A stretch of DNA of 64,000 nt, from assembly GCA_964016885.1 (NCBI GenBank), contig OZ024741.1:400644001-400708000 (forward strand), in the 5' to 3' direction. Below are positions 10,212-64,000 of this stretch, piece after piece. A program made the translations under genes and the position numbers. The notes beneath the pieces are model-generated. The model was not told the origin of the DNA. It ran no database searches and saw nothing but the letters and a program-made list of their open reading frames with translations. Origin of the DNA: Eledone cirrhosa (taxonomy: Eukaryota). The first letter of the stretch is position 1. Each line of letters begins with the position of its first letter.

Positions 10212-10285
10212 TATGAATTTAGTTCAATATTGAATCACCAATCAGTTGACTCTCCAGAAGTTAGTTGCTGATTTACTTTATTAAA

Positions 10286-10420
10286 CTGGACTGGAAAGCA
10301 AGTCACTATGAGAGATTGATAGATGTAGAGAATGAATGGAAGGAAGGGAAACTACTCCTAACTTACCCAGAGGAAAGAGCAGCTATTGAAATTGACAGTT
10401 TTAGGGTGCAAGATATGACC
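10286..10420 (+). mobile_element. RTE-clade LINE internal fragment (endonuclease-RT linker) running into the satellite
   Basis: Translation from 10292: WKASHYERLIDVENEWKEGKLLLTYPEERAAIEIDSFRVQDM. Resembles the RTE linker pattern W..HYERLLN.EN.W...L....P.EGPAI.ID...V..AI..MK (recalled, not searched). Confidence 0.7.
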
Positions 10421-13400
10421 AGCTATTGAAGTTGACAGTTTTAGGGTGCAAGATATGACGAGCTATTGAAGTTGACAGTTTTAGGGTGCAAGATATGACC
10501 AGCTATTGAAGTTGACAGTTTTAGAGTAAAGGATATGACCAGCTATTGAAGTTGACAGTTTTAGGGTGCAAGATAACCAGCTATTGAAGTTGACAGTTTT
10601 AGTGTGAAAGATATGATCAGCTATTGAAGTTGACAGTTTTAGGGTGCAAGATATGACGAGCTATTGAAGTTGACAGTTTTAGGGTGCAAGATATGACAAT
10701 CTATTGAAGTTGACAGTTTTAGCGGGCAAGATATGACCAGCTATTGAAGTTGACAGTTTCAGGCTGCAAGATATGACCAGCTATTGAAGTTGACAGTTTT
10801 AGGGTGAAAGATATGACCAGCTATTGAGGTTGACAGGTTTAGGGTGCAAGATATGGCCAGCTATTGAAGTTGACAGTTTTAGGGTGCAAGATATGACCAG
10901 CTATTGAAGTTGACAGTTTTAGCGTGCAAGACATGACCAGCTATTGAAGTTGACAGTTTCAGGGTGCAAGATATGACCAGCTATTAAAGTTGACAGATTT
11001 AGCGTGCAAGATAGGACAGCTATTGAAGATGACAGTTTTAGGGTGAAGATAACCAGCTATTGAAGCTGACAGTTTTAGGGTGCAAGATATGACGAGCTAT
11101 TGAAGTTGACAGTTTTAGGGTGCAAGATATGACCAGCTATTGAAGTTGACAGTTTTAGCGGGCAAGATATGACCAGCTATTGAAGTTGACAGTTTCAGGG
11201 TGCAAGATATGACCAGCTATTGAAGTTGACAGGTTTAAGGTGCAAGATATGGCCGGCTATTGAAGTTGACAGTTTAAGCCTGCAAGATATGACCAGCTAT
11301 TGAAGTTGACAGTTTTAGGGTGCAAGATATGACCAGCTATTGAAATTGACCGTTTTAGTGTGAAAGATATGTCGAGCTATTGAAGTTGACAGTTTTAGGG
11401 TGCAAGATCTGACCAGCTATTGAAGTTGACAGATTTAGTGTGAAAGATATGACCAGCTATTGAAGTGGACAGTTGTAGGGTGCAAGATATGACCAGTTAT
11501 TGAAGTTGACAGTTTTAGCGTGAAAGATATGACAGCTATTGAAGTTGACAGTTTTAGGGTGCAAGATAACCAGCTATTGAAGTTGACAGTTTTAGTGTGA
11601 AAGATATGATCAACTATTGAAGTTGACAGTTTTAGGGTGCAAGATATAAACCGCTATTGAAGTTGACAGTTTCGGGGTGCAAGATATGACCAGCTATTGA
11701 AGTTGACAGTTTTAGCGTGCAAGATATGACCAGCTATTGAAGTTGACAGTTTCAGGCTGCAAGATATGACCAGCTATTGAAGTTGACAGTTTTAGGGTGA
11801 AAGATATGACCAGCTATTGAAGTTGACAGATTTAGGGTGCAAGATATGACGAGCTATTGAAGTTGACAGTTTTAGGGTGCAAGATATGACGAGCTATTGA
11901 AGTTGACAGTTTTAGGGTGCAAGATATGACCAGCTATAGAGCTTGACAGGTTTAGGGTGCAAGATATAAACCGCTATTGAAGTTGACAGTTTCAGGGTGC
12001 AAGATATGACTAGCTATTGAAATTGACACTTTTAGGTGCAAGATATGACCATCTATTGAGGTTGACAGTTTTAGAGTAAAGGATATGACCAGCTATTGAT
12101 GTTGACAGTTTTAGGGTGCAAGGTATGACCAGCTATTGAAGTTAACAGTTTTAGGGTGGAAGATATAACCAGCTATTGAAGTTGACAGTTTTAGAGTAAA
12201 GGATATGACCAGCTATTGAAGTTCACAGTTTTAGAATAAAGGATATGACCAGCTATTGAAGTTGACAGTTTAGGGTGCAAGATATGACTAGCTATTGAAG
12301 TTGACAGTTTTAGGGTGAAAGATATAACCAGCTATTGAAGTTGACATTTTAGTGGGAAAGATATGACGAGCTATTGAAGTTGACAGTTTTAGGGTGCAAG
12401 TTATGACCAGCTATTGAAGTTGACAGTTTTAGTGTGAAAGATATGACCAGCTATTGAAGTGGACAGTTTTAGGGTGCAAGATATGACGAGCTATTGAAGT
12501 TGACAGATTTAGGGTGCAAGATATGACCAGCTATTGAAGTTGACAGTTTTAGGGTGCAAGATAACCAGCTATTGAAGTTGACAGTTTTAGTGTGAAAGAT
12601 ATGACCAGCTATTGAAGTTGACAATTTTAGGGTGCAAGATATAACCAGCTATTGAAGTTGACAATTTTAGGGTGCAAGATATGACTAGCTATTGAAGTTG
12701 ACAATTTTAGGGTGAAAGATATGACCATCTATTGAAGTTGACAGTTTTAGAGTAAAGGATATGACCAGCTATTGAAGTTGACAGTTTTAGGGTGCAAGAT
12801 AACCAGCTATTGAAGTTGACAGTTTTAGTGTGAAAGATATGATCAGCTATTGAAGTTGACAGTTTTAGGGTGCAAGATATGACGAGCTATTGACGTTGAC
12901 AGTTTTAGGGTGCAAGATATGACCAGCTATTGAAGTTGACAGTTTTAGCGTGCAAGACATGACCAGCTATTGAAGTTGACAGTTTCAGGGTGCAAGATAT
13001 GACCAGCTATTGAAGTTGACAGTTTTAGGGTGCAAGATATGACCAGCTATTGAGGTTGACAGGTTTAGGGTGCAAGATATGACCAGCTATTGAAGTTGAC
13101 AGTTTTAGCGTGCAAGACATGACCAGCTATTGAGGTTGACAGTTTCAGGGTGCAAGATATGACCAGCTATTAAAGTTGACAGATTTAGCGTGCAAGATAG
13201 GACAGCTATTGAAGTTGACAGTTTTAGGGTGAAGATAACCAGCTATTGAAGCTGACAGTGTTAGGGTGCAAGATATGACGAGCTATTGAAGTTGACAGTT
13301 TTAGGGTGCCAAATATGACCAGCTATTGAAGTTGACAGTTTTAGCGGGCAAGATATGACCAGTTATTGAAGTTGACAGTTTCAGGGTGCAAGATATGACC

Positions 13401-16400
13401 AGCTATTGAAGTTGACAGGTTTAAGGTGCAAGATATGGCCGGCTATTGAAGTTGACAGTTTAAGCCTGCAAGATATGACCAGCTATTGAAGTTGACAGTT
13501 TTAGGGTGCAAGATCTGACCAGCTATTGAAGTTGACAGATTTAGCGTGCAAGATATGACAGCTATTGAAGTTGACAGTTTTAGGGTGCAAGATAACCAGC
13601 TATTGAATTTGACTGTTTTAGTGTGAAAGATATGATCAGCTATTGAAGTTGACAGATTTAGGGTGCAAGATATGACGAGCTATTGAAGTTGACAGTTTTA
13701 GGGTGCAAGATATGACCAGCTATTGAAGTTGACAGTTTTAGCGTGCAAGATATGACCAGCTATTGAAGTTGACAGTTTCAGGCTGCAAGATATGACCAGC
13801 TATTGAAGTTGACAGTTTCAGGGTGAAAGATATGACCAGCTATTGAAGTTGACAGTTTTAGGGTGCAAGATATAAACCGCTATTGAAGTTGACAGTTTCA
13901 GGGTGCAAGATATGACTAGCTATTGAAATTGACACTTTTAGGTGCAAGATATGACCATCTATTGAAGTTGACAGTTTTAGAGTAAAGGATATGACCAGCT
14001 ATTGATGTTGACGGTTTTAGGGTGCAAGGTATGACCAGCTATTGAAGTTGACAGTTTTAGGGTGGAAGATATAACCAGCTATTGAAGTTGACAGTTTTAG
14101 AGTAAAGGATATGACCAGCTATTGAAGTTCACAGTTTTAGAATAAAGGATATGACCAGCTATTGAAGTTGACAGTTTTAGGGTGCAAGATATGACTAGCT
14201 ATTGAAGTTGACAGTTTTAGGGTGAAAGATATAACCAGCTATTGAAGTTGACGTTTTAGTGGGAAAGATATGACGAGCTATTGAAGTTGACAGTTTTAGG
14301 GTGCAAGATATGACCAGCTATTGAAGTTGACAGTTTTAGTGTGAAAGATATGACCAGCTATTGAAGTGGACAGTTTTAGGGTGCAAGATATGACCAGCTA
14401 TTAAAGTTGACAGTTTTAGCGTGAAATATATGACCAGCTATTGAAGTTGACAGTTTTATGGTGCAAGGTATGACGAGCTATTGACGTTGTCAGTTTTAGG
14501 GTTCAAGATATGACCAGCTATTGAAGTTGACAGTTTTAGAGTAAAGGATATGACCAGCTATCGAAGTTCACAGTTTTAGAATAAAGGATATGACCAGCTA
14601 TTGAAGTTGACAGTTTTAGGGTGCAAGATATGACCAGCTATTGAAGTTGACAATTTTAGGGTGCAAGATATAACCAGCTATTGAAGTTGACAGTTTCAGG
14701 GTGCAAGATATGACTAGCTATTGAAGTTGACAATTTTAGGGTGCAAGATATAAACAGCTATTGAAGTTGACAGTTTCAGGGTGCAAGATATGACCAGTTA
14801 TTGAAGTTGACAGTTTCAGGCTGCAAGATATGACCAGCTATTGAAGTTGACAGTTTTAGGGTGCAAGATATGACCAGCTATTGAGGTTGACAGGTTTAGG
14901 GTGCAAGATATGGCCAGCTATTGAAGTTGACAGTTTTAGGGTGCAAGATATGACCAGCTATTGAAGTTGACAGTTTCAGGGTGCAAGATATGACCAGCTA
15001 TTAAAGTTGAGAGATTTAGCGTGCAAGATAGGACAGCTATTGAAGTTGACGGTTTTAGGGTGAAGATAACCAGCTATTGAAGCTGACAGTTTTAGGGTGC
15101 AAGATATGACGAGCTATTGAAGTTGACAGTTTTAGGGTGCAAGATATGACCAGCTATTGAAGTTGACAATTTTAGCGGGCAAGATATGACCAGCTATTGA
15201 AGTTGACAGTTTCAGGGTGCAAGATATGACCAGCTATTGAAGTTGACAGGTTTAAGGTGCAAGATATGGCCGGCTATTGAAGTTGACAGTTTAAGCCTGC
15301 AAGATATGACCAGCTATTGAAGTTGACAGTTTTAGGGTGCAAGATATGACCAGCTATTGAAGTTGACCGTTTTAGTGTGAAAGATATGTCGAGCTATTGA
15401 AGTTGACAGTTTTAGGGTTCAAGATCTGACCAGCTATTGAAGTTGACAGATTTAGTGTGAAAGATATGACCAGCTATTGAAGTGGACAGTTTTAGGGTGC
15501 AAGATATGACGAGCTATTGAAGTTGACAATGTTAGGGTGCAAGATATGACCAGCTATTGAAGTTGAAATTTTTTGGGTGCAAGATAACCAGCTATTGAAG
15601 TTGACAGTTTTAGTGTGAAAGATATGATCGGCTATTGAAGTTGACAGTTTTAGGGTGCAAGATATGACGAGCTATTGAAGTTGACAGTTTGAGGGGTCAA
15701 GATATGACAATCTATTGAATTTGACAGTTTTAGCGGGCAAGATATGACCAGCTATTGAAGTTGACAGTTTCAGGCTGCAAGATATGACCAGCTATTGAAG
15801 TTGACAGTTTTAGGGTGCAAGATATAATCAGCTATTGAGGTTGACAGGTTTAGGGTGCAAGATATGGCCAGCTATTGAAGTTGACATTTCTAGGGTGCAA
15901 GATATGACCAGCTATTGAAATGGACAGTTTTAGCGTGCAAGATATGACCAGCTATTGAAGTTGACAGTTTTAGGGTGAAAGATATGACCAGCTATTGAAG
16001 TTGAAGTTTTAGGGTGCAAGATATAACCACCTATTGAAGTTGACAGTTTCAGGGTGCAAGATATGACTAGCTATTGAAGTTGACACTTTTAGGTGCAAGA
16101 TATGACCATCTATTGAAGTTGACAGTTTTAGAGTAAAGAATATGACCAGCTATTTAAGTGGACAGTTTTAGGGTGCAAGATATGACGAGCTATTGAAGTT
16201 AACAAATTTAGGGTGAAAGATATGACGAGCTATTGAAGTTGACAGTTTTAGGGTGCAAGATATGACGAGCTATTGAAGTTGACAGTTTTAGGGTGCAAGA
16301 TATGACCAGCTATTGAAGTTGACAGATTTAGCGTGCAAGATAGGACAGCTATTGAAGTTGACAGTTTTAGGGTGAAAGATAACCAGCTATTGAGTTACAG

Positions 16401-19400
16401 TTTTAGGGTGCAAGATATGACGAGCAATTGAAGTTGACGGTTTTAGGGTGCAAGATATGACCAGCTATTGAAGTTGACAGTTTTAGCGTGCAAGATATGA
16501 CCAGCTATTGAAGTTGACAGTTTCAGGGTGCAAGATATAACGAGTTATTGAAGTTGACAGGTTTAAGGTGCAAGATACGGCCGGCTATTGAAGTTGACAG
16601 TTTAAGCCTGCAAGATATGACCAGCTATTGAAGTTGACAGTTTTAGGGTGCAAGATATAACCAGCTATTGAAGTTGACAATTTCAGGTTGCAAGATATGA
16701 CTAGCTATTGAAGTTGACAGTTTTAGGGTGAAAGATATGACCATCTATTGAAATTGACAGTTTTAGAGTAAAGGATATGACCAGCTATTGAAGTTGACAG
16801 TTTTAGTGGGAAAGATATGACGAGCTATTGAAGTTGAGAGTTTTAGGGTGCAAGGTATGAACAGCTATTGAAGTTGAGAGTTTTAGGGTGCAAGATATGA
16901 ACAGCTATTGAAGTTGAGAGTTTTAGGGTGCAAGATATGAACAGCTATTGAAGTGGACAGTTTTAGCGTGCAAGATATGACAGCTATTGAAGTTGACAGT
17001 TTTAGGGTGCAAGATAACCAGCTATTGAAGTTGACAGTTTTAGTGTGAAAGATATAATCAGCTATTGAAGTTGATAGATTTAGGGTGCAAGATATGACGA
17101 GCTATTGAAGTTGACAGTTTTAGCGTGCAAGATATGACCAGCTATTGAAGTTGACAGTTTCAGGGTGCAAGATATGACCAGCTATTAAATTTGACAGATT
17201 TAGCGTGCAAGATAGGAGAGCTATTGAAGTTGACAGTTTTAGGGTGAAGATAAACAGCTATTGAAGCTGACAGTTTTAGTGTGCAAGATATGACGAGCTA
17301 TTGAAGTTGGCAGTTTCAGGGTGCAAGATATGACCAGCTATTGAAGCTGACAGTTTTAGTGTGCAAGATATGACGAGCTATTGAAGTTGGCAGTTTCAGG
17401 GTGCAAGATATGACCAGCTATTGAAGTTGACAGTTTTAGCGGGCAAGATATGACCAGCTATTGAAGTTGACAGTTTTAGGGTGCAAGGTCTGACCAGCTA
17501 TTGAATTTGACAGATCTAGTGTGAAAGATATGACCAGCTATTGAAGTGGACAGTTTTAGGGTGCAAGATATGACGAGCTATTGAAGTTGACAGTTTTAGG
17601 GTGCAAGATATGACCAGCTATTGAAGTTGACAGTTTTTGGGTGCAAGATAACCAGCTATTGAAGTTGACAGTTTTAGTGAGAAAGATATGATCGGCTATT
17701 GAAGTTGACAGTTTTAGCGTGCAAGATATGACTAGCTATTGAAGTTGACAGTTTCATGGTGCAAGATATGACCAGCTATTGAATTTGACAGTTTTAGCAG
17801 GCAAGATATGACCAGCTATTGAAGTTGACAGTTTCAGGTTGCAAGATATGACCAGCTATTGAAGTTGACAGTTTTAGGGTGCAAGATATGACTAGCTATT
17901 GAAGTTGACAGTTTTAGGATGAAAGATATGACCAGCTATTGAAGTTGACAGTTTTAGGGTGCAAGATATAACCACCTATTGAAGTTGACAGTTTCAGGGT
18001 GCAAGATATGACTAGCTATTGAAGTTGACACTTTTAGGTGCAAGATATGACCATCTATTGAAGTTGACAGTTTCAGAGTAAAGGATATGACCAGCTATTT
18101 AAGTGGACAGTTTTAGGGTGCAAGATATGACGAGCCATTGAAGTTAACAAATTTAGGGTGAAAGATATGACCAGCTATTGAAGTTGACAGCTTTAGGGTG
18201 CAAGATATGACCAGCTATTGAAGTTGACAGTTTTAGTGTGAAAGATATGTCGAGCTACTGAAGTTGACAGTTTTAGGGTGCAAGATATGACGAGCTATTG
18301 AAGTTGACAGTTTTAGGGTGCAAGATATGACCAGCTATTGAAGTTGACAGATTTAGCGTGCAAGATAGGACAGCTTTTGAAGTTGACAGTTTTAGGGTGA
18401 AAGATAACGAGCTATTGAAGTTACAGTTTTAGGGTACAAGATATGACGAGCTATTGAAGTTGACGGGTTTAAGGTGCAAGATATGGCCGGCTATTGAAGT
18501 TGACAGTTTAAGCCTGCAAGATATGACCAGCTATTGAAGTTGACAGTTTTAGGGTGCAAGATATAACCAGCTATTGAAGTTGACAATTTCAGGGTGCAAG
18601 ATATGACTAGCTATTGAAGTTGACAGTTTTAGGGTGAAAGATATGACCATCTATTGAAGTTGACAGTTTTAGAGTAAAGGATATGACCAGCTATTGAAGT
18701 TGACAGTTTTAGTGGGAAAGATATGACGAGCTATTGAAGTTGAGAGTTTTAGGGTGCAAGATATGAACAGCTATTGAAGTGGACAGTTTTAGGGTGCAAG
18801 ATATGACGAGCTATTGAAGTTGACAATTTTAGGGTGCAAGATATGACCAGTTATTGAAGTTTACAGTTTTAGCGTGCAAGATATGACCAGCCATTGAAGT
18901 TGACAGTTTCAGGCTGCAAGATATGACCAGCTATTGAAGTTGACAGTTTTAGGGTGAAAGATATGACCAGCTATTGAAGTTGACAGTTTTAGGGTGCAAG
19001 ATATAAACAGCTATTGAAGTTGACAATTTCAGGGTGCAAGATATGACTAGCTATTGAAATTGACACTTTTAGGTGCAAGATATGACCATCTATTGAAGTT
19101 GACAGTTTTAGAGTAAGGGATATGACCAGCTATAGATGTTGACAGTTTTAGGGTGCAAGGTATGACCAGCTATTGAAGTTGACAGTTTTAGGGTGGAAGA
19201 TATAACCAGCTATTGAAGTTGACAGGTTTAGGGTGCAAGATATGAACAGCAATTGAAGTTGACAGTTTTAGTCTGAATGATATGACCAGCTATTGAAGTT
19301 GACAGTTTTAGGGTGGAAGATATTACTAGCTATTGAAGTTGACAGTTTTAGGGTGCAAGATATGACCAGCTATTGAAGTTGACAGTTTTAGAGTAAAGGA

Positions 19401-22400
19401 TATGACCAGCTATTGAAGTTCACAGTTTTAGAATAAAGGATATGACCAGCTATTGATGTTGACAATTTTAGGGTGCAAGATATAACCAGCTATTGAAGTT
19501 GACAGTTTCAGGGTGCAAGATATGACTAGCTATTGAAGTTGACAGTTTTAGAGGTGAAAGATATGACCATCTATTGAAGTTGACAGTTTTAGAGTAAAGG
19601 ATATGACCAGCTATTGAAGTTGACATTTTAGTGGGAAAGATATAACGAGCTATTGAAGTTGACAGTTTTAGGGTGCAAGATATGACCAGCTATTTAAGTT
19701 GACAGTTTTAGTGTGAAAGATATGACCAGCTATTGAGGTGGACAGTTTTAGGGTGCAAGATATGACGAGCTATTGAAGTTGACAGTTTTAGGGTGCAAGA
19801 TATGACAATCTATTGAAGTTGACAGTTTTAGCGGGCAATATATGACTAGCTATTGAATTTGACAGTTTCAGGCTTCAAGATATGACCAGCTATTGAAGTT
19901 GACAGTTTTAGGGTGCAAGATATGACCAGCTATTAAGGTTGACAGGTTTAGGGTGCAAGATATGACCAGCTATTGAAGTTGACAGTTTAGGGTGCAAGAT
20001 ATAACCAGCTATTGAAGTTGACAGGTTTAGGGTGCAAGATAAGACCAGCTATTGAAGTGGACAGTTTTAGGGTGCAAGATATGACGAGCTATTGAAGTTG
20101 ACAGTTTTAGGGTGCAAGATAACCCGCTATTGAAGTTGACAGTTTTAGTGTGAAAGATATGATCAACTATTGAAGTTGACAGATTTAGGGTGAAAGATAT
20201 GACCAACTATTGAAGTTGACAGTTTTAGAGTAAAGGATATGACCAGCTATTGAAGTTCACAGTTTTAGAATAAAGGATATGACCAGCTATTGAAGTTGAC
20301 AGTTTTAGGGTGCAAGATATGACTAGCTATTGAAGTTGACAGTTTTAGGGTGAAGGATATGACCAGCTATTGAAGTTGACAGTATTAGGGTGCAAGACAT
20401 AACCAGCTATTGAAGTTGACAGTTTCAGGGTGCAAGATATGACTAGCTATTGAAGTTGAGAGTTTTAGGGTGAAAGATATGACCATCTATTGAAGTTGAC
20501 AGTTTTAGTGTAAAGGATATGACCAGCTATTGAAGTTGACAGTTTTAGTGGGAAAGATATCACGAGCTATTGAAGTTGACAGTTTTAGGGTGCAAGATAT
20601 GAACAGCTATTGAAGTGGACAGTTTTAGGGTGCAAGATATGACGAGCTATTGAAGTTAACAGTTTTAGGGTGAAAGATATGACCAGCTATTGAAGTTGAC
20701 AGTTTTAGAGTAAAGGATATGACCAGCTATTGAAGTTCACAGTTTTAGAATAAAGGATATGACCAGCTATTGAAGTTGACAAATTTAGGGTGCAAGATAT
20801 AACCAGCTATTGAAGTTGACAGTTTCAGGGTGCAAGATATGACTAGCTATTGAAGTTGACAGTTTTAGGGTGAAAGATATGACCATCTATTGAAGTTGAC
20901 AGTTTTAGAGTAAAGGATATGACCAGTTATTGAAGTTGACATTTTAGTGGGAAAGATATGACGAGCTATTGAAGTTGACAGTTTTAGGGTGCAAGATATG
21001 ACCAGCTATTGAAGTTGACAGTATTAGGGTGCAAGATATAACCAGCTATTGAAGTTGACAGTTTCAGGGTGCAAGATATGACTAGCTATTGAAGTTGAGA
21101 GTTTTAGGGTGAAAGATATGACCATCTATTGAAGTTGACAGTTTTAGTGTAAAGGATATGACCAGCTATTGAAGTTGACAGTTTTAGTGGGAAAGATATC
21201 ACGAGCTATTGAAGTTGACAGTTTTAGGGTGCAAGATATGAACAGCTATTGAAGTGGACAGTTTTAGGGTGCAAGATATGACGAGCTATTGAAGTTAACA
21301 GTTTTAGGGTGAAAGATATGACCAGCTATTGAAGTTGACAGTTTTAGGGTGCAAGATATGACCAGCTATTGAAGTTGACAGTTTTAGTGTGAAAGATATG
21401 TCGAGCTATTGAAGTTGACAGTTTTGGGGTGCAAGATAAGACCAGCTATTGAAGTTGACAGTTTTAGTGTGAAAGATATGACCAGCTATTGAAGTGGACA
21501 GTTTTAGGGTGCAAGATATGACGAGCTATTGAAGTTGACAGATTTAGGGTGCAAGATATGACCAGCTATTGAAGTTGACAGTTTTGGGGTGCAAGATAAC
21601 CAGCTATTGAAGTTGACAGTTTTAGTGTGAAATATATGATCAGCTATTGAATTTGACAGTTTTAGGGTGCAAGATATAACGAGCTATTGAAGTTGGCAGT
21701 TTTAGAGTAAAGGATATGACCAGTTATTGAAGTTGACATTTTAGTGGGAAAGATATGACTAGGTATTGAAGTTGACAGTTTTAGGGTGAAGGATATGACC
21801 AGCTATTGAAGTTGACAGTATTAGGGTGCAAGATATAACCAGCTATTGAAGTTGACAGTTTCAGGGTGCAAGATATGACTAGCTATTGAAGTTGAGAGTT
21901 TTAGGGTGAAAGATATGACCATCTATTGAAGTTGACAGTTTTAGTGTAAAGGATATGACCAGCTATTGAAGTTGACAGTTTTAGTGGGAAAGATATCACG
22001 AGCTATTGAAGTTGACAGTTTTAGGGTGCAAGATATGACCAGCTATTGAAGTTGACAGTATTAGGGTGCAAGATATAACCAGCTATTGAAGTTGACAGTT
22101 TCAGGGTGCAAGATATGACTAGCTATTGAAGTTGAGAGTTTTAGGGTGAAAGATATGACCATCTATTGAAGTTGACAGTTTTAGTGTAAAGGATATGACC
22201 AGCTATTGAAGTTGACAGTTTTAGTGGGAAAGATATCACGAGCTATTGAAGTTGACAGTTTTAGGGTGCAAGATATGAACAGCTATTGAAGTGGACAGTT
22301 TTAGGGTGCAAGATATGACGAGCTATTGAAGTTAACAGTTTTAGGGTGAAAGATATGACCAGCTATTGAAGTTGACAGTTTTAGGGTGCAAGATATGACC

Positions 22401-22799
22401 ATCTATTGAAGTTGACAGTTTTAGTGTGAAAGATATGTCGAGCTATTGAAGTTGACAGTTTTAGGGTGCAAGATATGACCAGCTATTGAAGTTGACAGTT
22501 TTAGTGTGAAAGATATGACCAGCTATTGAAGTGGACAGTTTTAGGGTGCAAGATATGACGAGCTATTGAAGTTGACAGATTTAGGGTGCAAGATATGACC
22601 AGCTATTGAAGTTGACAGTTTTGGGGTGCAAGATAACCAGCTATTGAAGTTGACAGTTTTAGTGTGAAATATATGATCAGCTATTGAAGTTGACAGTTTT
22701 AGCGTGCAAGATATGATGAGCTATTGAAGTTGGCAGTTTTAGGGTGCAAGATATGATAATCCATTGAAGTTGACAGTTTTAGCGGGCAAGATATGACCA

Positions 22800-25700
22800 G
22801 CTATTGAATTTGACAGTTTCAGGCTTCAAGATATGACCAGCTATTGAAGTTGACAGTGTTAGGGTGCAAGATATGACCAGCTATTGAAGTTGACAGTTTT
22901 AGCGTGCAAGATATGACCAGCTATTGACGTTGACAGTTTCAGGGTGCAAGATATGACCAGCTATTGAAGTTGACAGTTTTAGTGTGAAATATATGACCAG
23001 CTGTTGAAGTTGACAGTTTTAGCGTGCAAGATATGACCAGCTATTGAAGTTGACAGTTTCAGGGTGCAAGATATGACCAGCTATTGAAGTTAACAGTTTA
23101 GGGTGCAAGATATAACCAGCTATTGAAGTTGACAGGTTTAGGGTGCAAGATATGACCAGCTATTGAAGTTGACAGTTTTAGTGTGCAAGATATGACCAGC
23201 TATTGAAGTTGACAGTTTTAGAGTAAAGGATATGACCAGCTATTGAAGTTCACAGTTTTAGAATAAAGGATATGACCAGCTATTGAAGTTGACAAATTTA
23301 GGGTGCAAGATATAACCAGCTATTGAAGTTGACAGTTTCAGGGTGCAAGATATGACTACCTATTGAAGTTGACAGTTTTAGGGTGAAAGATATGACCATC
23401 TATTGAAGTTGACAGTTTTAGAGTAAAGGATATGACCAGTTATTGAAGTTGACATTTTAGTGGGAAAGATATGACCAGCTATTGAAGTTGACAGTTTTAG
23501 GGTGCAAGATATGACCATCTATTGAAGTTGACAGTTTTAGAGTAAAGGATATGACCAGCTATTGAAGTTGACATTTTAGTGGGAAAGATATGACGAGCTA
23601 TTGAAGTTGACAGTTTTAGGGTGCAAGATATGACCAGCTATTGAAGTTGACAGTTTTAGCGGGCAAGATATGACCAGCTATTGAATTTGACAGTTTCAGG
23701 CTTCAAGATATGACCAGCTATTGAAGTTGACAGTTTTAGGGTGCAAGATATGACCAGCTATTGAGGTTGACAGGTTTAGGGTGCAAGATATGACCAGCTA
23801 TTGAAGTTGACAGTTTTAGGGTGCAAGATATGACGAGCTATTGAAGTTGACAGTTTTAGGGTGCAAGATAACCAGCTATTGAAGTTGACCGTTTTAGTGT
23901 GAAAGATATGATCAACTATTGAAGTTGACAGATTTAGGGTGAAAGATATGACCAGCTATTGAAGTTGACAGTTTTAGAGTAAAGGATATGACCAGCTATT
24001 GAAGTTCACAGTTTTAGAATAAAGGATATGACCAGCTATTGAAGTTGACAGTTTTAGGGTGCAAGATATGACTAGCTATTGAAATTGACACTTTTAGGTG
24101 CAAGATATGACCATCTATTGAAGTTGACAGTTTTAGAGTAAAGGATATGACCAGCTATTGATGTTGACAGTTTTAGGGTGCAAGGTATGACCAGCTATTG
24201 AAGTTGACAGTTTTAGGGTGGAAGATATAACCAGCTATTGAAGTTGACAGGTTTAGGGTGCAAGATATGACCAGCTATTGAAGTTGACAGTTTTAGTGTG
24301 AAAGATATGACCAGCTATTGAAGTTGACAGTTTTAGGGTGGAAGATATGACCAGCTATTGAAGTTGACAGTTTTAGTGTGAAAGATATGACCAGCTATTG
24401 AAGTTGACAGTTTAAGGGTACAAGATATGACGAGCTATTGATTTTGTCAGTTTTAGGGTGCAAGATATGACCAGCTATTGAAGTTGACAGTTTTAGAATA
24501 AAGGATATGACCAGATATTGAAGTTGACAGTTTTAGGGTGCAAGATATGACTAGCTATTGAAGTTGACAGTTTTAGGGTGAAAGGTATGACCAGCTATTG
24601 AAGTTGACAGTATTAGGGTGCAAGATATAACCAGCTATTGAAGTTGACAGTTTCAGGGTGCAAGATATGACTAGCTATTGAAGTTGAGAGTTTTAGGGTG
24701 AAAGATATGACCATCTATTGAAGTTGACAGTTTTAGTGTAAAGGATATGACCAGCTATTGAAGTTGACAGTTTTAGTGGGAAAGATATGACGAGCTATTG
24801 AAGTTGACAGTTTTAGGGTGCAAGATATGAACAGCTATTGAAGTGGACAGTTTTAGGGTGCAAGATATGACGAGCTATTGAAGTTAAAAGTTTTAGGGTG
24901 AAAGATATGACCAGCTATTGAAGTTGACAGTTTTAGGGTGCATGATATGACCAGCTATTGAAGTTGACGGTTTTAGTGTGAAAGATATGTCGAGCTATTG
25001 AAGCTGACAGTTTTAGGGTGCAAGATATGACCAGCTATTGAAGTTGACAGTTTTAGTGTGAAAGATATGACCAGCTATTGAAGTGGACAGTTTTAGGGTG
25101 CAAGATATGACGAGCTATTGAAGTTGACAGATTTAGGGTGCAAGATATGACCAGCTATTGAAGTTGACAGTTTTTGGGTGCAACATAACCAGCTATTGAA
25201 GTTGACAGTTTTAGTGTGAAATATATGATCAGCTATTGAAGTTGACAGTTTTAGGGTGCAAGATATGACGAGCTATTGAAGTTGGCAGTTTTAGGGTGCA
25301 AGATATGATAATCTATTGAAGTTGACAGTTTTAGCGGGCAAGATATGACCAGCTATTGAAGTTGACAGTTTTAGCGGGCAAGATATGACCAGCTATTGAA
25401 TTTGACAGTTTCAGGCTTCAAGATATGACCAGCTATTGAAGTTGACAGTTTTAGGGTGCAAGATATGACCAGCTATTGAGGTTGACAGGTTTAGGGTGCA
25501 AGATATGACCAGCTATTGAAGTTGACAGTTTTAGGGAGCAAGATATGACGAGCTATTGAAGTGGACAGTTTTAGGGTGCAAGATAACCAGCTATTGAAGT
25601 TGACCGTTTTAGTGTGAAAGATATGATCAACTATTGAAGTTGACAGATTTAGGGTGAAAGATATGACCATCTATTGAAGTTGACAGTTTTAGAGTAAAGG

Positions 25701-28700
25701 ATATGACCAGCTATTGAAGTTCACAGTTTTAGAATAAAGGATATGACCAGCTATTGAAGTTGACAGTTTTAGGGTGCAAGATATGACTAGCTATTGAAAT
25801 TGACACTTTTAGGTGCAAGATATGACCATCTATTGAAGTTGACAGTTTTAGAGTAAAGGATATGACCAGCTATTGATGTTGACAGTTTTAGGGTGCAAGG
25901 TATGACCAGCTATTGAATTTGACAGTTTCAGGCTTCAAGATATGACCAGCTATTGAAGTTGACAGTGTTAGGGTGCAAGATATGACCAGCTATTGAAGTT
26001 GACAGTTTTAGCGTGCAAGATATGACCAGCTATTGACGTTGACAGTTTCAGGGTGCAAGATATGACCAGCTATTGAAGTTGACAGTTTTAGTGTGAAATA
26101 TATGACCAGCTGTTGAAGTTGACAGTTTTAGCGTGCAAGATATGACCAGCTATTGAAGTTGACAGTTTCAGGGTGCAAGATATGACCAGCTATTGAAGTT
26201 AACAGTTTAGGGTGCAAGATATAACCAGCTATTGAAGTTGACAGGTTTAGGGTGCAAGATATGACCAGCTATTGAAGTTGACAGTTTTAGTGTGCAAGAT
26301 ATGACCAGCTATTGAAGTTGACAGTTTTAGAGTAAAGGATATGACCAGCTATTGAAGTTCACAGTTTTAGAATAAAGGATATGACCAGCTATTGAAGTTG
26401 ACAAATTTAGGGTGCAAGATATAACCAGCTATTGAAGTTGACAGTTTCAGGGTGCAAGATATGACTACCTATTGAAGTTGACAGTTTTAGGGTGAAAGAT
26501 ATGACCATCTATTGAAGTTGACAGTTTTAGAGTAAAGGATATGACCAGTTATTGAAGTTGACATTTTAGTGGGAAAGATATGACCAGCTATTGAAGTTGA
26601 CAGTTTTAGGGTGCAAGATATGACCATCTATTGAAGTTGACAGTTTTAGAGTAAAGGATATGACCAGCTATTGAAGTTGACATTTTAGTGGGAAAGATAT
26701 GACGAGCTATTGAAGTTGACAGTTTTAGGGTGCAAGATATGACCAGCTATTGAAGTTGACAGTTTTAGCGGGCAAGATATGACCAGCTATTGAATTTGAC
26801 AGTTTCAGGCTTCAAGATATGACCAGCTATTGAAGTTGACAGTTTTAGGGTGCAAGATATGACCAGCTATTGAGGTTGACAGGTTTAGGGTGCAAGATAT
26901 GACCAGCTATTGAAGTTGACAGTTTTAGGGTGCAAGATATGACGAGCTATTGAAGTTGACAGTTTTAGGGTGCAAGATAACCAGCTATTGAAGTTGACCG
27001 TTTTAGTGTGAAAGATATGATCAACTATTGAAGTTGACAGATTTAGGGTGAAAGATATGACCAGCTATTGAAGTTGACAGTTTTAGAGTAAAGGATATGA
27101 CCAGCTATTGAAGTTCACAGTTTTAGAATAAAGGATATGACCAGCTATTGAAGTTGACAGTTTTAGGGTGCAAGATATGACTAGCTATTGAAATTGACAC
27201 TTTTAGGTGCAAGATATGACCATCTATTGAAGTTGACAGTTTTAGAGTAAAGGATATGACCAGCTATTGATGTTGACAGTTTTAGGGTGCAAGGTATGAC
27301 CAGCTATTGAAGTTGACAGTTTTAGGGTGGAAGATATAACCAGCTATTGAAGTTGACAGGTTTAGGGTGCAAGATATGACCAGCTATTGAAGTTGACAGT
27401 TTTAGTGTGAAAGATATGACCAGCTATTGAAGTTGACAGTTTTAGGGTGGAAGATATGACCAGCTATTGAAGTTGACAGTTTTAGTGTGAAAGATATGAC
27501 CAGCTATTGAAGTTGACAGTTTAAGGGTACAAGATATGACGAGCTATTGATTTTGTCAGTTTTAGGGTGCAAGATATGACCAGCTATTGAAGTTGACAGT
27601 TTTAGAATAAAGGATATGACCAGATATTGAAGTTGACAGTTTTAGGGTGCAAGATATGACTAGCTATTGAAGTTGACAGTTTTAGGGTGAAAGGTATGAC
27701 CAGCTATTGAAGTTGACAGTATTAGGGTGCAAGATATAACCAGCTATTGAAGTTGACAGTTTCAGGGTGCAAGATATGACTAGCTATTGAAGTTGAGAGT
27801 TTTAGGGTGAAAGATATGACCATCTATTGAAGTTGACAGTTTTAGTGTAAAGGATATGACCAGCTATTGAAGTTGACAGTTTTAGTGGGAAAGATATGAC
27901 GAGCTATTGAAGTTGACAGTTTTAGGGTGCAAGATATGAACAGCTATTGAAGTGGACAGTTTTAGGGTGCAAGATATGACGAGCTATTGAAGTTAAAAGT
28001 TTTAGGGTGAAAGATATGACCAGCTATTGAAGTTGACAGTTTTAGGGTGCATGATATGACCAGCTATTGAAGTTGACGGTTTTAGTGTGAAAGATATGTC
28101 GAGCTATTGAAGCTGACAGTTTTAGGGTGCAAGATATGACCAGCTATTGAAGTTGACAGTTTTAGTGTGAAAGATATGACCAGCTATTGAAGTGGACAGT
28201 TTTAGGGTGCAAGATATGACGAGCTATTGAAGTTGACAGATTTAGGGTGCAAGATATGACCAGCTATTGAAGTTGACAGTTTTTGGGTGCAACATAACCA
28301 GCTATTGAAGTTGACAGTTTTAGTGTGAAATATATGATCAGCTATTGAAGTTGACAGTTTTAGGGTGCAAGATATGACGAGCTATTGAAGTTGGCAGTTT
28401 TAGGGTGCAAGATATGATAATCTATTGAAGTTGACAGTTTTAGCGGGCAAGATATGACCAGCTATTGAAGTTGACAGTTTTAGCGGGCAAGATATGACCA
28501 GCTATTGAATTTGACAGTTTCAGGCTTCAAGATATGACCAGCTATTGAAGTTGACAGTTTTAGGGTGCAAGATATGACCAGCTATTGAGGTTGACAGGTT
28601 TAGGGTGCAAGATATGACCAGCTATTGAAGTTGACAGTTTTAGGGAGCAAGATATGACGAGCTATTGAAGTGGACAGTTTTAGGGTGCAAGATAACCAGC

Positions 28701-29026
28701 TATTGAAGTTGACCGTTTTAGTGTGAAAGATATGATCAACTATTGAAGTTGACAGATTTAGGGTGAAAGATATGACCATCTATTGAAGTTGACAGTTTTA
28801 GAGTAAAGGATATGACCAGCTATTGAAGTTCACAGTTTTAGAATAAAGGATATGACCAGCTATTGAAGTTGACAGTTTTAGGGTGCAAGATATGACTAGC
28901 TATTGAAATTGACACTTTTAGGTGCAAGATATGACCATCTATTGAAGTTGACAGTTTTAGAGTAAAGGATATGACCAGCTATTGATGTTGACAGTTTTAG
29001 GGTGCAAGGTATGACCAGCTATTGAA
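22800..29026 (+). repeat. Higher-order tandem duplication, period 3,109 bp (~78 monomers), containing a 1,715-bp (~43 monomer) sub-period
   Basis: Rare variants recur at +3109: ACAGTGTTAG 22853/25962; GACCGTTTT 23887/26996 and 25602/28711; ATTTTGTCAG 24441/27550. At +1715: 23887/25602 and 27550/29265. Confidence 0.9.
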
Positions 29027-30589
29027 GTTGACAGTTTTAGGGTGGAAGATATAACCAGCTATTGAAGTTGACAGGTTTAGGGTGCAAGATATGACCAGCT
29101 ATTGAAGTTGACAGTTTTAGTGTGAAAGATATGACCAGCTATTGAAGTTGACAGTTTTAGGGTGGAAGATATGACCAGCTATTGAAGTTGACAGTTTTAG
29201 TGTGAAAGATATGACCACCTATTGAAGTTGACAGTTTTAGGGTGCAAGATATGACGAGCTATTGATTTTGTCAGTTTTAGGGTGCAAGATATGACCAGCT
29301 ATTGAAGTTGACAGTTTTAGAATAAAGGATATGACCAGATATTGAAGTTGACAGTTTTAGGGTGCAAGATATGACTAGCTATTGAAGTTGACAGTTTTAG
29401 GGTGAAAGGTATGACCAGCTATTGAAGTTGACAGTATTAGGGTGCAAGATATAACCAGCTATTGAAGTTGACAGTTTCAGAGTGCAAGATATGACTAGCT
29501 ATTGAAGTTGAGAGTTTTAGGGTGAAAGATATGACCATCTATTGAAGTTGACAGTTTTAGTGTAAAGGATATGACCAGCTATTGAAGTTGACAGTTTTAG
29601 TGGGAAAGATATGACGAGCTATTGAAGTTGACAGTTTTAGGGTGCAAGATATGAACAGCTATTGAAGTGGACAGTTTTAGGGTGCAAGATATGACGAGCT
29701 ATTGAAGTTAACAGTTTTAGGGTGAAAGATATGACCAGCTATTGAAGTTGACAGTTTTAGGGTGCATGATATGACCAGCTATTGAAGTTGACGGTTTTAG
29801 TGTGAAAGATATGTCGAGCTATTGAAGCTGACAGTTTTAGGGTGCAAGATATGACCAGCTATTGAAGTTGACAGTTTTAGTGTGAAAGATATGACCAGCT
29901 ATTGAAGTGGACAGTTTTAGGGTGCAAGAAGAGACGAGCTATTGAAGTTGACAGATTTAGGGTGCAAGATATGACCAGCTATTGAAGTTGACAGTTTTTG
30001 GGTGCAAGATAACCAGCTATTGAAGTTGACAGTTTTAGTGTGAAATATATGATCAGCTATTGAAGTTGACAGTTTTAGGGTGCAAGATATGACGAGCTAT
30101 TGAAGTTGGCAGTTTTAGGGTGCAAGATATGATAATCTATTGAAGTTGACAGTTTTAGCGGGCAAGATATGACCAGCTATTGAATTTGACAGTTTCAGGC
30201 TTCAAGATATGACCAGCTATTGAAGTTGACAGTTTTAGTGTGCAAGATATGACCAGCTATTGAAGTTGACAGTTTTAGCGTGCAAGATATGACCAGCTAT
30301 TGAAGTTGACAGTTTCAGGGTGCAAGATATGACCAGCTATTGAAGTTGACAGTTTTAGTGTGAAATATATGACCAGCTGTTGAAGTTGACAGTTTTAGCG
30401 TGCAAGATATGACCAGCTATTGAAGTTGACAGTTTCAGGGTGCAAGATATGACCAGCTATTGAAGTTAACAGTTTAGGGTGCAAGATATAACCAGCTATT
30501 GAAGTTGACAGGTTTAGGGTGCAAGATATGACCAGCTATTGAAGTTGACAGTTTTAGTGTGAAAGATATGACCAGCTATTGAAGTTGAC

Positions 30590-33500
30590 AGTTTTAGGGT
30601 GGAAGATATGACCAGCTATTGAAGTTGACAGTTTTAGTGTGAAAGATATGACCAGCTATTTAAGTTGACAGTTTTAGGGTGCAAGATATGACCACGTATG
30701 GAAGTTGACCGTTTTAGAGTGCAAGATATGACCAGCTATTGAAGTTCACAGTTTTAGAATAAAGGATATGACCAGCTATTGAAGTTGACAAATTTAGGGT
30801 GCAAAATATAACCAGCTATTGAAGTTGACAGTTTCAGGGTGAAAGATATGACCATCTATTGAAGTTGACAGTTTTAGAGTAAAGGATATGACCAGCTATT
30901 GAAGTTGACATTTTAGTGGGAAAGATATGACGAGCTATTGAAGTTGACAGTTTTATGGTGCAAGATATGACCAGCTATTAAAGTTGACAGTTTTAGTGTG
31001 AAAGATATGACCAGCTATTGAAGTGGACAGTTTTAGGGTGCAAGATATGACGAGCTATTGAAGTTGACAATTTTAGGGTGCAAGATATGACAATCTTTTG
31101 AAGTTGACAGTTTTAGCGGGCAAGATTTGACCAGCTATTGAATTTGACAGTTTCAAGCTTCAAGATATGACCAGCTATTGAAGTTGACAGTTTAGGGTGC
31201 AAGATATAACCAGCTATTGAAGTTGACAGGTTTAGGGTGCAAGATATGACCAGCTATTGAAGTTGACAGTTTTAGTGTGAAAGATATGACCACCTATTGA
31301 ATTTGACAGTTTTAGGGTGGAAGATATGACCAGCTATTGAAGTTGAGAGTTTTAGGGTGCAAGATATGAACAGCTATTGAAGTGGACAGTTTTAGGGTGC
31401 AAGATATGACCAGCTATTGAAGTGGACAGTTTTAGGGTGCAAGATATGACCAGCTATTGAAGTTGACAGTTTTATGGTGCAAGATATGACGAGCTATTGA
31501 AGTTGACAGTTTTAGGGTGCAAGATATGACAATCTATTGAAGTTGACAGTTTTAGCGGGCAAGATATGACCAGCTATTGAATTTGACAGTTTCAGGCTTC
31601 AAGATATGACCAGCTATTGAAGTTGACAGTTTTAGGGTGCAAGATATGACCAGCTATTGAGGTTGACAGGTTTAGGGTGCAAGATATGGCCAGCTATTGA
31701 AGTTGACAGTTTTAGGGTGCAAGATATGACCAGCTATTGAAGTTGACAGTTTTAGCGTGCAAGATATGACCAGCTATTGAAGTTGACAGTTTCAGGGTGC
31801 AAGATATGACCAGCTATTGAAGTTAACAGTTTTAGTGTGAAATATATGACCAGCTATTGAAGTTGACAGTTTTAGCGTGCAAGATATGACCAGCTATTGA
31901 AGTTGACAGTTTCAGGGTGCAAGATATGACCAGCTATTGAAGTTAACAGTTTAGGGTGCAAGATATGACCAGCTATTGAAGTTGACAGTTTTAGTGTGAA
32001 AGATATGACCAGCTATTGAAGTTGACAGTTTTAGGGTGGAAGATATGACCAGCTATTGAAGTTGACAGTTTTAGCGTGCAAGATATGAACAGCTATTGAA
32101 GTTGACAGTTTCAGGGTGCAAGATATGACCAGCTATTGAAGTTGACAGTTTTAGTGTGAAATATATGACCAGCTGTTGAAGTTGACAGTTTTAGCGTGCA
32201 AGATATGACCAGCTATTGAAGTTGACAGTTTCAGGGTGCAAGATATGACCAGCTATTGAAGTTAACAGTTTAGGGTGCAAGATATAACCAGCTATTGAAG
32301 TTGACAGGTTTAGGGTGCAAGATATGACCAGCTATTGAAGTTGACAGTTTTAGTGTGAAAGATATGACCAGCTATTGAAGTTGACAGTTTTAGGGTGGAA
32401 GATATGACCAGCTATTGAAGTTGACAGTTTTAGTGTGAAAGATATGACCAGCTATTTAAGTTGACAGTTTTAGGGTGCAAGATATGACGAGCTATTGAAG
32501 TTGACAGTTTTAGAGTAAAGGATATGACCAGCTATTGAAGTTCACAGTTTTAGAATAAAGGATATGACCAGCTATTGAAGTTGACAGTTTTAGGGTGCAA
32601 GATATGACTAGCTATTGAAGTTGACAGTTTCAGGGTGCAAGATATGACCAGCTATTGAAGTTGACAGTTTTAGAGTAAAGGATATGACCAGCTATTGAAG
32701 TTCACAGTTTTAGAATAAAGGATATGACCAGCTATTAAAGTTGACAAATTTAGGGTGCAAGATATAACCAGCTATTGAAGTTGACAGTTTCAGGGTGAAA
32801 GATATGACCATCTATTGAAGTTGACAGTTTTAGAGTAAAGGATATGACCAGCTATTGAAGTTGACATTTTAGTGGGAAAGATATGACGAGCTATTGAAGT
32901 TGACAGTTTTAGGGTGCAAGATATGACCAGCTATTGAAGTTGACAGTTTTAGTGTGAAAGATATGACCAGCTATTGAAGTGGACAGTTTTAGGGTGGAAG
33001 ATATGACCAGCTATTGAAGTTGACAGTTTTAGTGTGAAAGATATGACCAGCTATTTAAGTTGACAGTTTTAGGGTGCAAGATATGACCACGTATGGAAGT
33101 TGACCGTTTTAGAGTGCAAGATATGACCAGCTATTGAAGTTCACAGTTTTAGAATAAAGGATATGACCAGCTATTGAAGTTGACAAATTTAGGGTGCAAA
33201 ATATAACCAGCTATTGAAGTTGACAGTTTCAGGGTGAAAGATATGACCATCTATTGAAGTTGACAGTTTTAGAGTAAAGGATATGACCAGCTATTGAAGT
33301 TGACATTTTAGTGGGAAAGATATGACGAGCTATTGAAGTTGACAGTTTTATGGTGCAAGATATGACCAGCTATTAAAGTTGACAGTTTTAGTGTGAAAGA
33401 TATGACCAGCTATTGAAGTGGACAGTTCTAGGGTGCAAGATATGACGAGCTATTGAAGTTGACAGTTTTAGGGTGCAAGATATGACAATCTTTTGAAGTT

Positions 33501-35700
33501 GACAGTTTTAGCGGGCAAGATTTGACCAGCTATTGAATTTGACAGTTTCAGGCTTCAAGATATGACCAGCTATTGAAGTTGACAGTTTAGGGTGCAAGAT
33601 ATAACCAGCTATTGAAGTTGACAGGTTTAGGGTGCAAGATATGACCAGCTATTGAAGTTGACAGTTTTAGTGTGAAAGATATGACCACCTATTGAATTTG
33701 ACAGTTTTAGGGTGGAAGATATGACCAGCTATTGAAGTTGAGAGTTTTAGGGTGCAAGATATGAACAGCTATTGAAGTGGACAGTTTTAGGGTGCAAGAT
33801 ATGACCAGCTATTGAAGTGGACAGTTTTAGGGTGCAAGATATGACCAGCTATTGAAGTTGACAGTTTTATGGTGCAAGATATGACGAGCTATTGAAGTTG
33901 ACAGTTTTAGGGTGCAAGATATGACAATCTATTGAAGTTGACAGTTTTAGCGGGCAAGATATGACCAGCTATTGAATTTGACAGTTTCAGGCTTCAAGAT
34001 ATGACCAGCTATTGAAGTTGACAGTTTTAGGGTGCAAGATATGACCAGCTATTGAGGTTGACAGGTTTAGGGTGCAAGATATGGCCAGCTATTGAAGTTG
34101 ACAGTTTTAGGGTGCAAGATATGACCAGCTATTGAAGTTGACAGTTTTAGCGTGCAAGATATGACCAGCTATTGAAGTTGACAGTTTCAGGGTGCAAGAT
34201 ATGACCAGCTATTGAAGTTAACAGTTTTAGTGTGAAATATATGACCAGCTATTGAAGTTGACAGTTTTAGCGTGCAAGATATGACCAGCTATTGAAGTTG
34301 ACAGTTTCAGGGTGCAAGATATGACCAGCTATTGAAGTTAACAGTTTAGGGTGCAAGATATGACCAGCTATTGAAGTTGACAGTTTTAGTGTGAAAGATA
34401 TGACCAGCTATTGAAGTTGACAGTTTTAGGGTGGAAGATATGACCAGCTATTGAAGTTGACAGTTTTAGCGTGCAAGATATGAACAGCTATTGAAGTTGA
34501 CAGTTTCAGGGTGCAAGATATGACCAGCTATTGAAGTTGACAGTTTTAGTGTGAAATATATGACCAGCTGTTGAAGTTGACAGTTTTAGCGTGCAAGATA
34601 TGACCAGCTATTGAAGTTGACAGTTTCAGGGTGCAAGATATGACCAGCTATTGAAGTTGACAGTTTAGGGTGCAAGATATAACCAGCTATTGAAGTTGAC
34701 AGGTTTAGGGTGCAAGATATGACCAGCTATTGAAGTTGACAGTTTTAGTGTGAAAGATATGACCACCTATTGAATTTGACAGTTTTAGGGTGGAAGATAT
34801 GACCAGCTATTGAAGTTGAGAGTTTTAGGGTGCAAGATATGAACAGCTATTGAAGTGGACAGTTTTAGGGTGCAAGATATGACCAGCTATTGAAGTGGAC
34901 AGTTTTAGGGTGCAAGATATGACCAGCTATTGAAGTTGACAGTTTTATGGTGCAAGATATGACGAGCTATTGAAGTTGACAGTTTTAGGGTGCAAGATAT
35001 GACAATCTATTGAAGTTGACAGTTTTAGCGGGCAAGATATGACCAGCTATTGAATTTGACAGTTTCAGGCTTCAAGATATGACCAGCTATTGAAGTTGAC
35101 AGTTTTAGGGTGCAAGATATGACCAGCTATTGAGGTTGACAGGTTTAGGGTGCAAGATATGGCCAGCTATTGAAGTTGACAGTTTTAGGGTGCAAGATAT
35201 GACCAGCTATTGAAGTTGACAGTTTTAGCGTGCAAGATATGACCAGCTATTGAAGTTGACAGTTTCAGGGTGCAAGATATGACCAGCTATTGAAGTTAAC
35301 AGTTTTAGTGTGAAATATATGACCAGCTATTGAAGTTGACAGTTTTAGCGTGCAAGATATGACCAGCTATTGAAGTTGACAGTTTCAGGGTGCAAGATAT
35401 GACCAGCTATTGAAGTTAACAGTTTAGGGTGCAAGATATGACCAGCTATTGAAGTTGACAGTTTTAGTGTGAAAGATATGACCAGCTATTGAAGTTGACA
35501 GTTTTAGGGTGGAAGATATGACCAGCTATTGAAGTTGACAGTTTTAGCGTGCAAGATATGAACAGCTATTGAAGTTGACAGTTTCAGGGTGCAAGATATG
35601 ACCAGCTATTGAAGTTGACAGTTTTAGTGTGAAATATATGACCAGCTGTTGAAGTTGACAGTTTTAGCGTGCAAGATATGACCAGCTATTGAAGTTGACA
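30590..35700 (+). repeat. Higher-order duplications, periods 2,395 bp (~60 monomers) and 1,078 bp (~27 monomers)
   Basis: ACCACGTATGG at 30691/33086; GACCACCTATTGAATTT at 31288/33683/34761. Boundaries approximate. Confidence 0.85.
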
Positions 35701-46400: not shown

Positions 46401-46460
46401 TTTAGTGGGAAAGATATGACGAGCTATTGAAGTTGACAGTTTTAGGGTGCAAGATATGAC
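37500..46460 (+). repeat. Higher-order tandem duplication, period 4,511/4,471 bp (113/112 monomers)
   Basis: ACCACGTATGG 37717/42228 (+4511); GAAGTCGAC 40162/44633 and CATAATATGA 41500/45971 (+4471, one monomer lost near 43.3 kb). Confidence 0.87.
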
Positions 46461-63230: not shown

Positions 63231-64000
63231 GACCAGCTATTGAAGTTGACAGTTTTAGGGTGCAAGATAACCAGCTATTGAAGTTGACAGTTTTAGTGTG
63301 AAGATATGATCAGCTATTGAAGTTGACAGTTTTAGGGTGCAAGATATGACGAGCTATTGAATTTGACAGTTTTAGGGTGCAAGATATGACAATCTATTGA
63401 AGTTGACAGTTTTAGCGGGCAAGATATGACCAGCTATTGAATTTGACTGTTTCAGGCTTCAAGATATGACCAACTATTGAAGTTGACAGTTTTAGAGTAA
63501 AGGATATGACCAGCTATTGAAGTTCAAAGTTTTAGAATAAAGGATATGACCAGCTATTGAAGTTGACAATTTTAGGGTGCAAGATATAACCAGCTATTGA
63601 AGTTGACAGTTTCAGGGTGCAAGATATGACTAGCTATTGAAGTTGACAGTTTTAGGGTGAAAGATAGGACCATCTATTGAAGTTGACAGTTTTAGAGTAA
63701 AGGATATGACCAGCTATTGAAGTTGACAGTTTTAGTGGGAAAGATATGACGAGCTATTGAAGTTGACAGTTTTAGGGTGCAAGATATGAACAGCTATTGA
63801 AGTGGACAGTTTTAGGGTGCAAGATATGACCAGCTATTGAAGTTGACAGTTTCAGTGTGAAAGATATGTCGAGCTATTGAAGTTGACAGTTTTAGGGTGC
63901 AAGATATGACCAGCTATTGAGGTTGACAGGTTTAGAGTGCAAGATATGGCCAGCTATTGAAGTTGACAGTTTTAGGGTGCAAGATATGACCAGCTATGGA

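Follow-up and report, generated by a model that had tools for sequence, protein, structure and literature searches.

The first step in the birth of a satellite is usually erased, and the present locus raises the question of whether it can still be read here: did a 40-bp satellite arise from the transposon remnant that adjoins its left end, and did it do so in place? The window, by which we mean the whole stretch of DNA that was analysed (64,000 nucleotides, G000:C2:400644001-400708000, in a 3.0-Gb animal assembly), had been read from its letters alone, and the original prediction held that a short piece of RTE-type LINE coding sequence had been amplified where it lay. We consider it very probable that this is a single-locus 134-kb satellite derived from the coding linker of an old RTE-like LINE, which was born in place beside a remnant of ~90 bp and was later enlarged by block duplication. 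The features on which this reading is built are collected in Table 1.

Table 1. Position, strand and basis of the arrays, duplications and LINE remnant (window positions unless a contig or locus is named)
Feature	Position	Strand	Basis
40-bp satellite array	10379..64000, on to G000:C2:400788445 (window-extended 144,445)	+	TRF, anchor and junction matches
Old RTE-like LINE remnant, endonuclease-RT linker	10288..10378	+	82-91% identity to dispersed copies
First monomer, continuous with LINE remnant	10377..10418	+	31/36 to subfamily majority
54-bp satellite array	G000:C1504:624197 to ~754150 (130 kb)		2,435 units, no N
98-bp linker duplication, 3 copies	L094:3449-3746 (G000:C9)	opposite to L095	
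98-bp linker duplication, 2 copies	L095:3580-3778 (G000:C9)	opposite to L094	

Within the window, TRF reported the 40-bp unit in 1,344 copies from 10380 to the last letter, and the array continues well past this edge to a length of 134 kb, with 3,350 anchor matches (~3,350 units) in one orientation and no N, so that the predicted extent of more than 53 kb was borne out. Genome-wide, a junction-spanning 31-mer has 410 exact matches and a 20-mer, with one mismatch allowed, 2,384, and every one of them (410/410 and 2,384/2,384) lies in this array; the junction motif was found nowhere in the genome on the reverse strand, and backwards controls gave 0. Because all genome-wide junction matches fall in the array, the satellite sits at one locus in the assembly, which is also the locus of the LINE remnant. 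Older arrays of the unit lacking this flank, which had been named as a possible argument against an origin at this site, were found nowhere else in the assembly. Moreover, the 3,349 monomers that were measured (3,192 of them of 40 bp) fall into 853 distinct types and differ from the majority by 5.7-7.6% on average per 10 kb; the array is thus long, head-to-tail and locally homogenised, as a satellite is. The variant AGAGTAAAGGATATG, which the original prediction called common, proved to be a minority, the two exact monomer types that carry it numbering 31 and 30 of 3,349, while the commoner variant G-AAAGAT (A at position 31, 36%) likewise reads RVKDM. As 40 is not divisible by three, the unit breaks the reading frame, which ends in the second unit, and the array is therefore non-coding.

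At the left junction, the frame from 10202 in the translated window reads ...KLDWKASHYERLIDVENEWKEGKLLLTYPEERAAIEIDSFRVQDM and then meets a stop, and the flank translation given earlier is therefore present. Dispersed copies of an old RTE-like LINE subfamily share 82-91% identity with the stretch 10288-10414, a match that is unbroken through the first monomer. With 10180-10420 as a DNA query, 42 matches besides the window itself were obtained (40 of 1,003 candidate regions scored) at E values of 3e-32 to 1e-22, so the flank does have LINE matches; the alignments of the dispersed copies start at window 10283-10311 and end at 10403-10416, within the first monomer, rather than at 10380, and nearly all of them stop 25-38 bases into it. 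These matches support the claims that the monomer is LINE coding-linker DNA and that flank and first monomer are collinear, since the homology crosses the junction in the dispersed copies, and on the left side the monomer is accordingly both homologous to and continuous with the attached element. The 46-aa translation of the fragment gave 17,922 candidates in the genome, and all 150 that were scored passed; against longer proteins it gave no match (4 candidates), the query being too short. The firm LINE match begins at ~10302-10305, and 10288-10301 aligns only with a 3-nt insertion (WKASHYE vs WKCYYE/WKCHYE). Beyond the point where the window turns into repeats, the dispersed copies continue as KDAIKEMKNGKAAGPS into the RT domain.

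For comparison of individual letters, 59 distinct copies of the subfamily were aligned, which remained from 81 loci after duplicates and loci without the segment had been taken away and which form a sample biased to close matches. Relative to the subfamily majority, 9 of 75 flank bases are changed (12% drift). Over the core positions the array majority agrees with the subfamily majority at 33 of 36 letters, compared with the lower count of the first monomer in Table 1. Positions 1 and 13 are changed in the first monomer alone, the array majority having the LINE letter there, and at 30-31 the first monomer has the derived letters of the array; this pattern would be expected of an edge unit whose outer half escapes homogenisation. 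A special sister relation between the flank and the copy L002, suggested by several common letters, need not follow, as G at position 1 occurs in 7/59 and A at position -2 in 10/59 copies.

Elements of the RTE clade have one long ORF with an APE-type endonuclease and RT and no ORF1, they lack an RNase H domain, and their 3′ end is a short tandem repeat. A younger full-length relative of the parent subfamily, L036, has an ORF of 1,025 aa with endonuclease, RT and PHD finger (common element span 1009-4560, ORF 1457-4534, leader of ~450 bp), and thus shows the single-ORF endonuclease/RT organisation of the clade. Its 4 Pfam matches include Exo_endo_phos and RVT_1 and no RNase H, and (GAT)n follows the stop codon in L036 and L037, in keeping with the other two features of RTE elements. 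The fragment corresponds to aa 436-475 of L036, between the endonuclease and RT domains, with 72% DNA identity, and the ORF features are those seen in L036, the younger relative. Hence the parent is an RTE-like LINE by architecture, and the RTE label of the original prediction fits in this sense, as an assignment by architecture and not by a tree. The best 120 protein matches carry no informative name, and among solved structures L1 ORF2p and R2 appear only as distant relatives. The younger LINE family has many near-identical intact ORFs, with the PHD finger right after the RT match (L036:1457-4534), and PHD-bearing relatives are common among its protein matches. RTE-2_OV of Octopus vulgaris, as described in the available part of PMC9115989, is like L036 in its single ORF of ~1,000-1,100 aa with endonuclease and RT, but is described with a C2H2 finger, whereas L036 has a PHD finger after the RT match; further RTE context is given in PMC13282606 (partial text).

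The statement that the rest of the progenitor is still attached was too strong: what remains on the left is ~90 bp, and on the right, where the LINE is not taken up again, no more than 9 nt. At the right end of the array, where a resumption of RTE sequence had been looked for, only a 9-nt gapped match was obtained (1.1% by chance). Collinear LINE sequence is absent within 20 kb to the left (5′ part) and within 39.6 kb to the right of the array, and an additional 10 kb to the left contains no LINE match. A LINE piece 3.4-4.9 kb to the right was rejected as the missing part of the progenitor because of its minus-strand orientation and its identity of only 74% to the closest relative, L002; the LINE pieces on the left were rejected also, being 3′ ends of the younger family that lie upstream or inverted. 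Two 3′ fragments of the younger LINE family are present in the window at 5611-6014 (+) and 8063-8909 (-), the latter ending in a triplet tail at 8075-8100.

Other features of the surroundings are given here for completeness. At 9706-10211, TTAA-CCCTT ... AAGGG-TTAA ends enclose a high-copy element with another repeat nested inside; we take these ends to resemble those of a piggyBac-type MITE, and the element ends 76 bp before the LINE remnant. A possible first coding exon, MYKLMPSILLFFFFFFCLSLTVTNG, signal-peptide-like in sequence, lies at 9361-9436 (+), with an AG acceptor-like site before it and a phase 1 GTAAG donor after it. The 134-kb array may be intronic if this exon is real, and the exon may also be a product of chance, its F run deriving from a TTC microsatellite. 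On the far side, ~100 kb past the right end, a 71-bp array resembling the head of a tRNA-derived SINE extends from G000:C2:400890160 to ~400902000 (L097, L047), and a 56-bp satellite appears in opposite orientations in two probes 100 kb apart, G000:C2:401000001-401002000 and 401100001-401102000 (L048, L049).

The manner of growth can be read from the monomers. Exact repeats of 81, 78, 50, 48 and 47 monomers occur at lags of 208, 78, 112, 70 and 129 units, respectively, and the dominant lag varies along the array, for which reason a fixed higher-order repeat or a single rolling-circle product was rejected. The fraction of rare monomer types common to neighbouring 250-unit bins is 0.10-0.57, compared with 0.00-0.03 between the two ends, and the variant set changes near 60-70 kb. 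Lags and variants of this kind are what repeated duplication of local blocks would give, and they do not fit a single fixed higher-order unit. Unequal exchange and template switching are established satellite biology, and we infer that they act here: the array would have grown by the copying of blocks of tens to ~200 monomers beside themselves, as by unequal exchange or replication template switching, and such copying would lead to local sharing of variants while the edge monomer drifts like unique DNA.

A second array derived from the same linker was found by searching for the core 14-mer repeated at 84-114 bp. Of the units of the array on C1504, 2,043 are of 54 bp and 382 of 50 bp, with a mean difference of 2.6%. 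Its 54-bp unit matches subfamily positions -38 to +15 at 45/54 letters and overlaps the 40-bp unit by 17 nt, and its junction and substitutions are its own. To its left is LINE sequence, broken by an insertion of ~290 bp, and to its right the LINE frame resumes at once (aa 449-550 and 646-865), so that here the element clearly continues beyond the array. This is an independent array from an overlapping piece of the same endonuclease-RT linker, and its birth site is cleaner than that of the window. The two 98-bp duplications of Table 1 lie on C9 in related LINE copies ~430 kb apart that are otherwise continuous LINE. Also on C9, a 47-bp unit in ~4 copies, from the 3′ part of the subfamily (ORF nt ~2657), was observed in L095:2186-2377 and in L223. 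The core 14-mer occurs 2,822 times forward (1,742 + 952 + 128) and 140 times in reverse, and the counts close (1,247 = 884 + 363; 358 = 356 + 2); from these closing counts, exactly two large arrays contain the core 14-mer, beside ~268 dispersed copies.

Taken together, the unit and the left flank are one continuous LINE piece, and birth in place would have begun with a small tandem duplication in a dead LINE copy, in which slippage or end-joining repair set two copies of a 40-nt window of decayed sequence head to tail, without deletion, and which was followed by repeated local block duplication; the remaining LINE copy would have been deleted on both sides, before or during this growth. The 98-bp duplications on C9 and the array on C1504 show this process at other stages within the same subfamily, which supports this reading. 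The head-to-tail joints of the unit are present in 9 raw reads with 4 start places from the RAD-seq run X7, from another sample and study. The site is one-sided, which stands against birth in place, as the gapped match of 9 nt is the only LINE continuation on the right. The best reading of the growth is a neutral, mutation-driven one.

The original prediction had included an internal deletion in the unit, removing '.KAI', and such a deletion is not needed. A contiguous 40-nt LINE window that starts two bases earlier agrees with the array majority at 35/40 letters, and two of the mismatched letters are at a decaying CpG (T at 36 in 14/59 copies, A at 37 in 15/59). Moreover, the right end favours continuation without a deletion: the 14 bases past the last unit score 5.0 in this case (a score that 1.1% of 4,000 random 14-mers from the flanks attain) and 1 with the deletion. 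Thus the unit probably came from the contiguous window. It is possible, although on balance unlikely, that birth in place took another course, namely duplication of 52 bp at a 2-nt GA microhomology, with the unit reduced to 40 bp by a 12-nt deletion (AIKE); any deletion would have removed AIKE and not the residues first named. The last four letters of the unit equal subfamily positions 49-52 exactly, GA stands at both ends of the 52-bp stretch, and TAT at unit positions 36-38, found in 0/59 dispersed copies, is explained more simply by this route. Gaps of at least 9 nt were counted 14 times in the 59 copies over 202 columns, some of them probably alignment-end effects. These points have to be set against the 35/40 match that the contiguous window already gives, the decay of the CpG and the low score of the right end. 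A different departure from the preferred reading is that the seed, a LINE scrap with a few units, was born elsewhere, was pasted here as a short templated insertion or a small circle, and was then expanded. The LINE piece is internal and lacks both ends of the element, a kind of fragment that retrotransposition does not produce by itself, and there is an 8-nt direct repeat at the right junction; a contig of the public run X2 with a different LINE flank also points this way. However, the junction has no other copy in the assembly, the 12% divergence of the flank from the subfamily majority is what an old resident copy would accumulate, and fragmentary LINE copies are common in the genome, and we regard a moved seed as improbable.

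That the junction or the length of the array is an artefact of assembly, with LINE joined to satellite via 31 identical letters, we judge to be highly improbable, and the public runs bear on this point. Of the nine runs listed, four contained part of the stretch and none contained half of it; the exact left junction is bridged by no listed contig in the five runs X1-X4 and X7, none of which covered the unique positions 10236-10274. The X2 contig mentioned above (181 nt, depth 50) joins LINE flank to ~1.75 monomers with 18/146 letters different, and it is absent from the listed contigs of X3 and X4, which come from the same sample; it may be a graph chimera or a different junction. Of these runs, those of organism B (X2-X4 and X7) have tandem joints listed and X1, of organism A, has none, in tables that are cut short and in which summed contig depth is no measure of copy number, and X2-X4 are one sample that may be the source of the assembly. 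Although the exact junction is thus unbridged in those runs, the left half of the first monomer has private letters and the right half array-specific ones, the 853 monomer types lie without N between unique sequence on both sides, and a chance join at an exactly homologous LINE cut would still require a LINE-derived unit. With birth in place retained, a further question is whether the linker is an intrinsic hotspot that favours duplication, or whose arrays are favoured, and so seeds satellites more than the rest of the LINE. The units of 40, 54 and 98 bp overlap in one 17-nt core, ~268 dispersed exact core 14-mers stand beside two arrays of more than 100 kb, and for three control 18-mers at other places of the ORF the forward and reverse counts are in balance (2773/2825, 5612/5616 and 223/176), which indicates no one-strand array of hundreds of copies at these controls. 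But the search motif was picked from the first array, so that only one large array is unascertained, and a hit at one of four positions has a chance of 0.25 if all are even; small duplications in the 59 copies also lie near nt 1094, 1318, 1434, 1832, 2634 and 2657 of the ORF, the controls would overlook diverged units, as well as arrays whose strand counts cancel out, and the 71-bp array past the right end, with its tRNA-like unit, is retroposon-like too. The control result is therefore suggestive only, three positions being too few to prove a hotspot, which we find doubtful. Equally doubtful is the claim that the linker is a recurrent seed, giving rise to the 40-bp and 54-bp arrays and the 98-bp duplication from a few hundred copies when other parts of the element do not. 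Most simply read, this is a genome in which any repeat tends to expand in tandem.

The locus is useful because its history can be followed from a known start: with hundreds of LINE copies in dispersed positions to represent the ancestor, and with the seed junctions and the two ends of each of two arrays still readable, one can measure the order of mutations, the drift at the edges and the growth by block duplication. Whether certain transposon segments are favoured as seeds becomes testable when two large arrays derive from overlapping stretches of a single linker, and if the hotspot were true, it would be local sequence that selects the parts of a transposon that turn into satellites, and one genome would offer three stages of growth from a known ancestor. 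In the literature search no paper was found on an RTE-ORF-derived satellite or on the 40-bp array, with thin coverage of subscription journals and supplements, and the word RTE has 0 occurrences in the available part of the review PMC9659126. That review, in the same part, reports that chicken HinfI (CR1) and Phodopus PROsat (L1) match LINE ORF2 and that the cetacean common satellite matches the 3′ part of L1. These satellites are like the present one in being homologous to a non-LTR retrotransposon, two of them to its ORF; the reviewed cases are wholly or partly similar to the element (PMC9659126), whereas here the whole unit is LINE-derived and the seed is attached. In Lathyrus sativus, short arrays within Ogre retrotransposons sometimes expand in place, as here, but in that case the short array belongs permanently to the element (PMC7004042, partial text), whereas most parent copies here lack a repeat at that place. 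A repeat at the linker position is present at 2 related loci among the 59 copies sampled, and because most parent copies lack it, each unit arose anew after insertion. The closest parallel is sSat of squamate reptiles (PMC10702118, of which part was available), in which tandem units likewise come from part of a retroposon, a longer terminal unit matches the parent on one side (commonest) or both, short internal duplications grade into arrays, and some primary duplications are favoured over others. The sSat parent is a SINE and its loci are many, whereas here the parent is a LINE coding region with one locus per unit type, and unit numbers are ~3,350 and 2,435 compared with up to 1,000 in sSat (PMC10702118). 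Retained seed ends are a common pattern of such SINE-derived satellites in the same source, and with the second, cleaner case on C1504 the earlier claim that an intact seed junction is rarely visible was overstated. LINE-ORF-derived satellites and retained seed ends are already known, and this is not a new kind of system; what is new is the independent 130-kb array on C1504 from the same linker, which makes the two arrays a clear double example of a known route of satellite birth.
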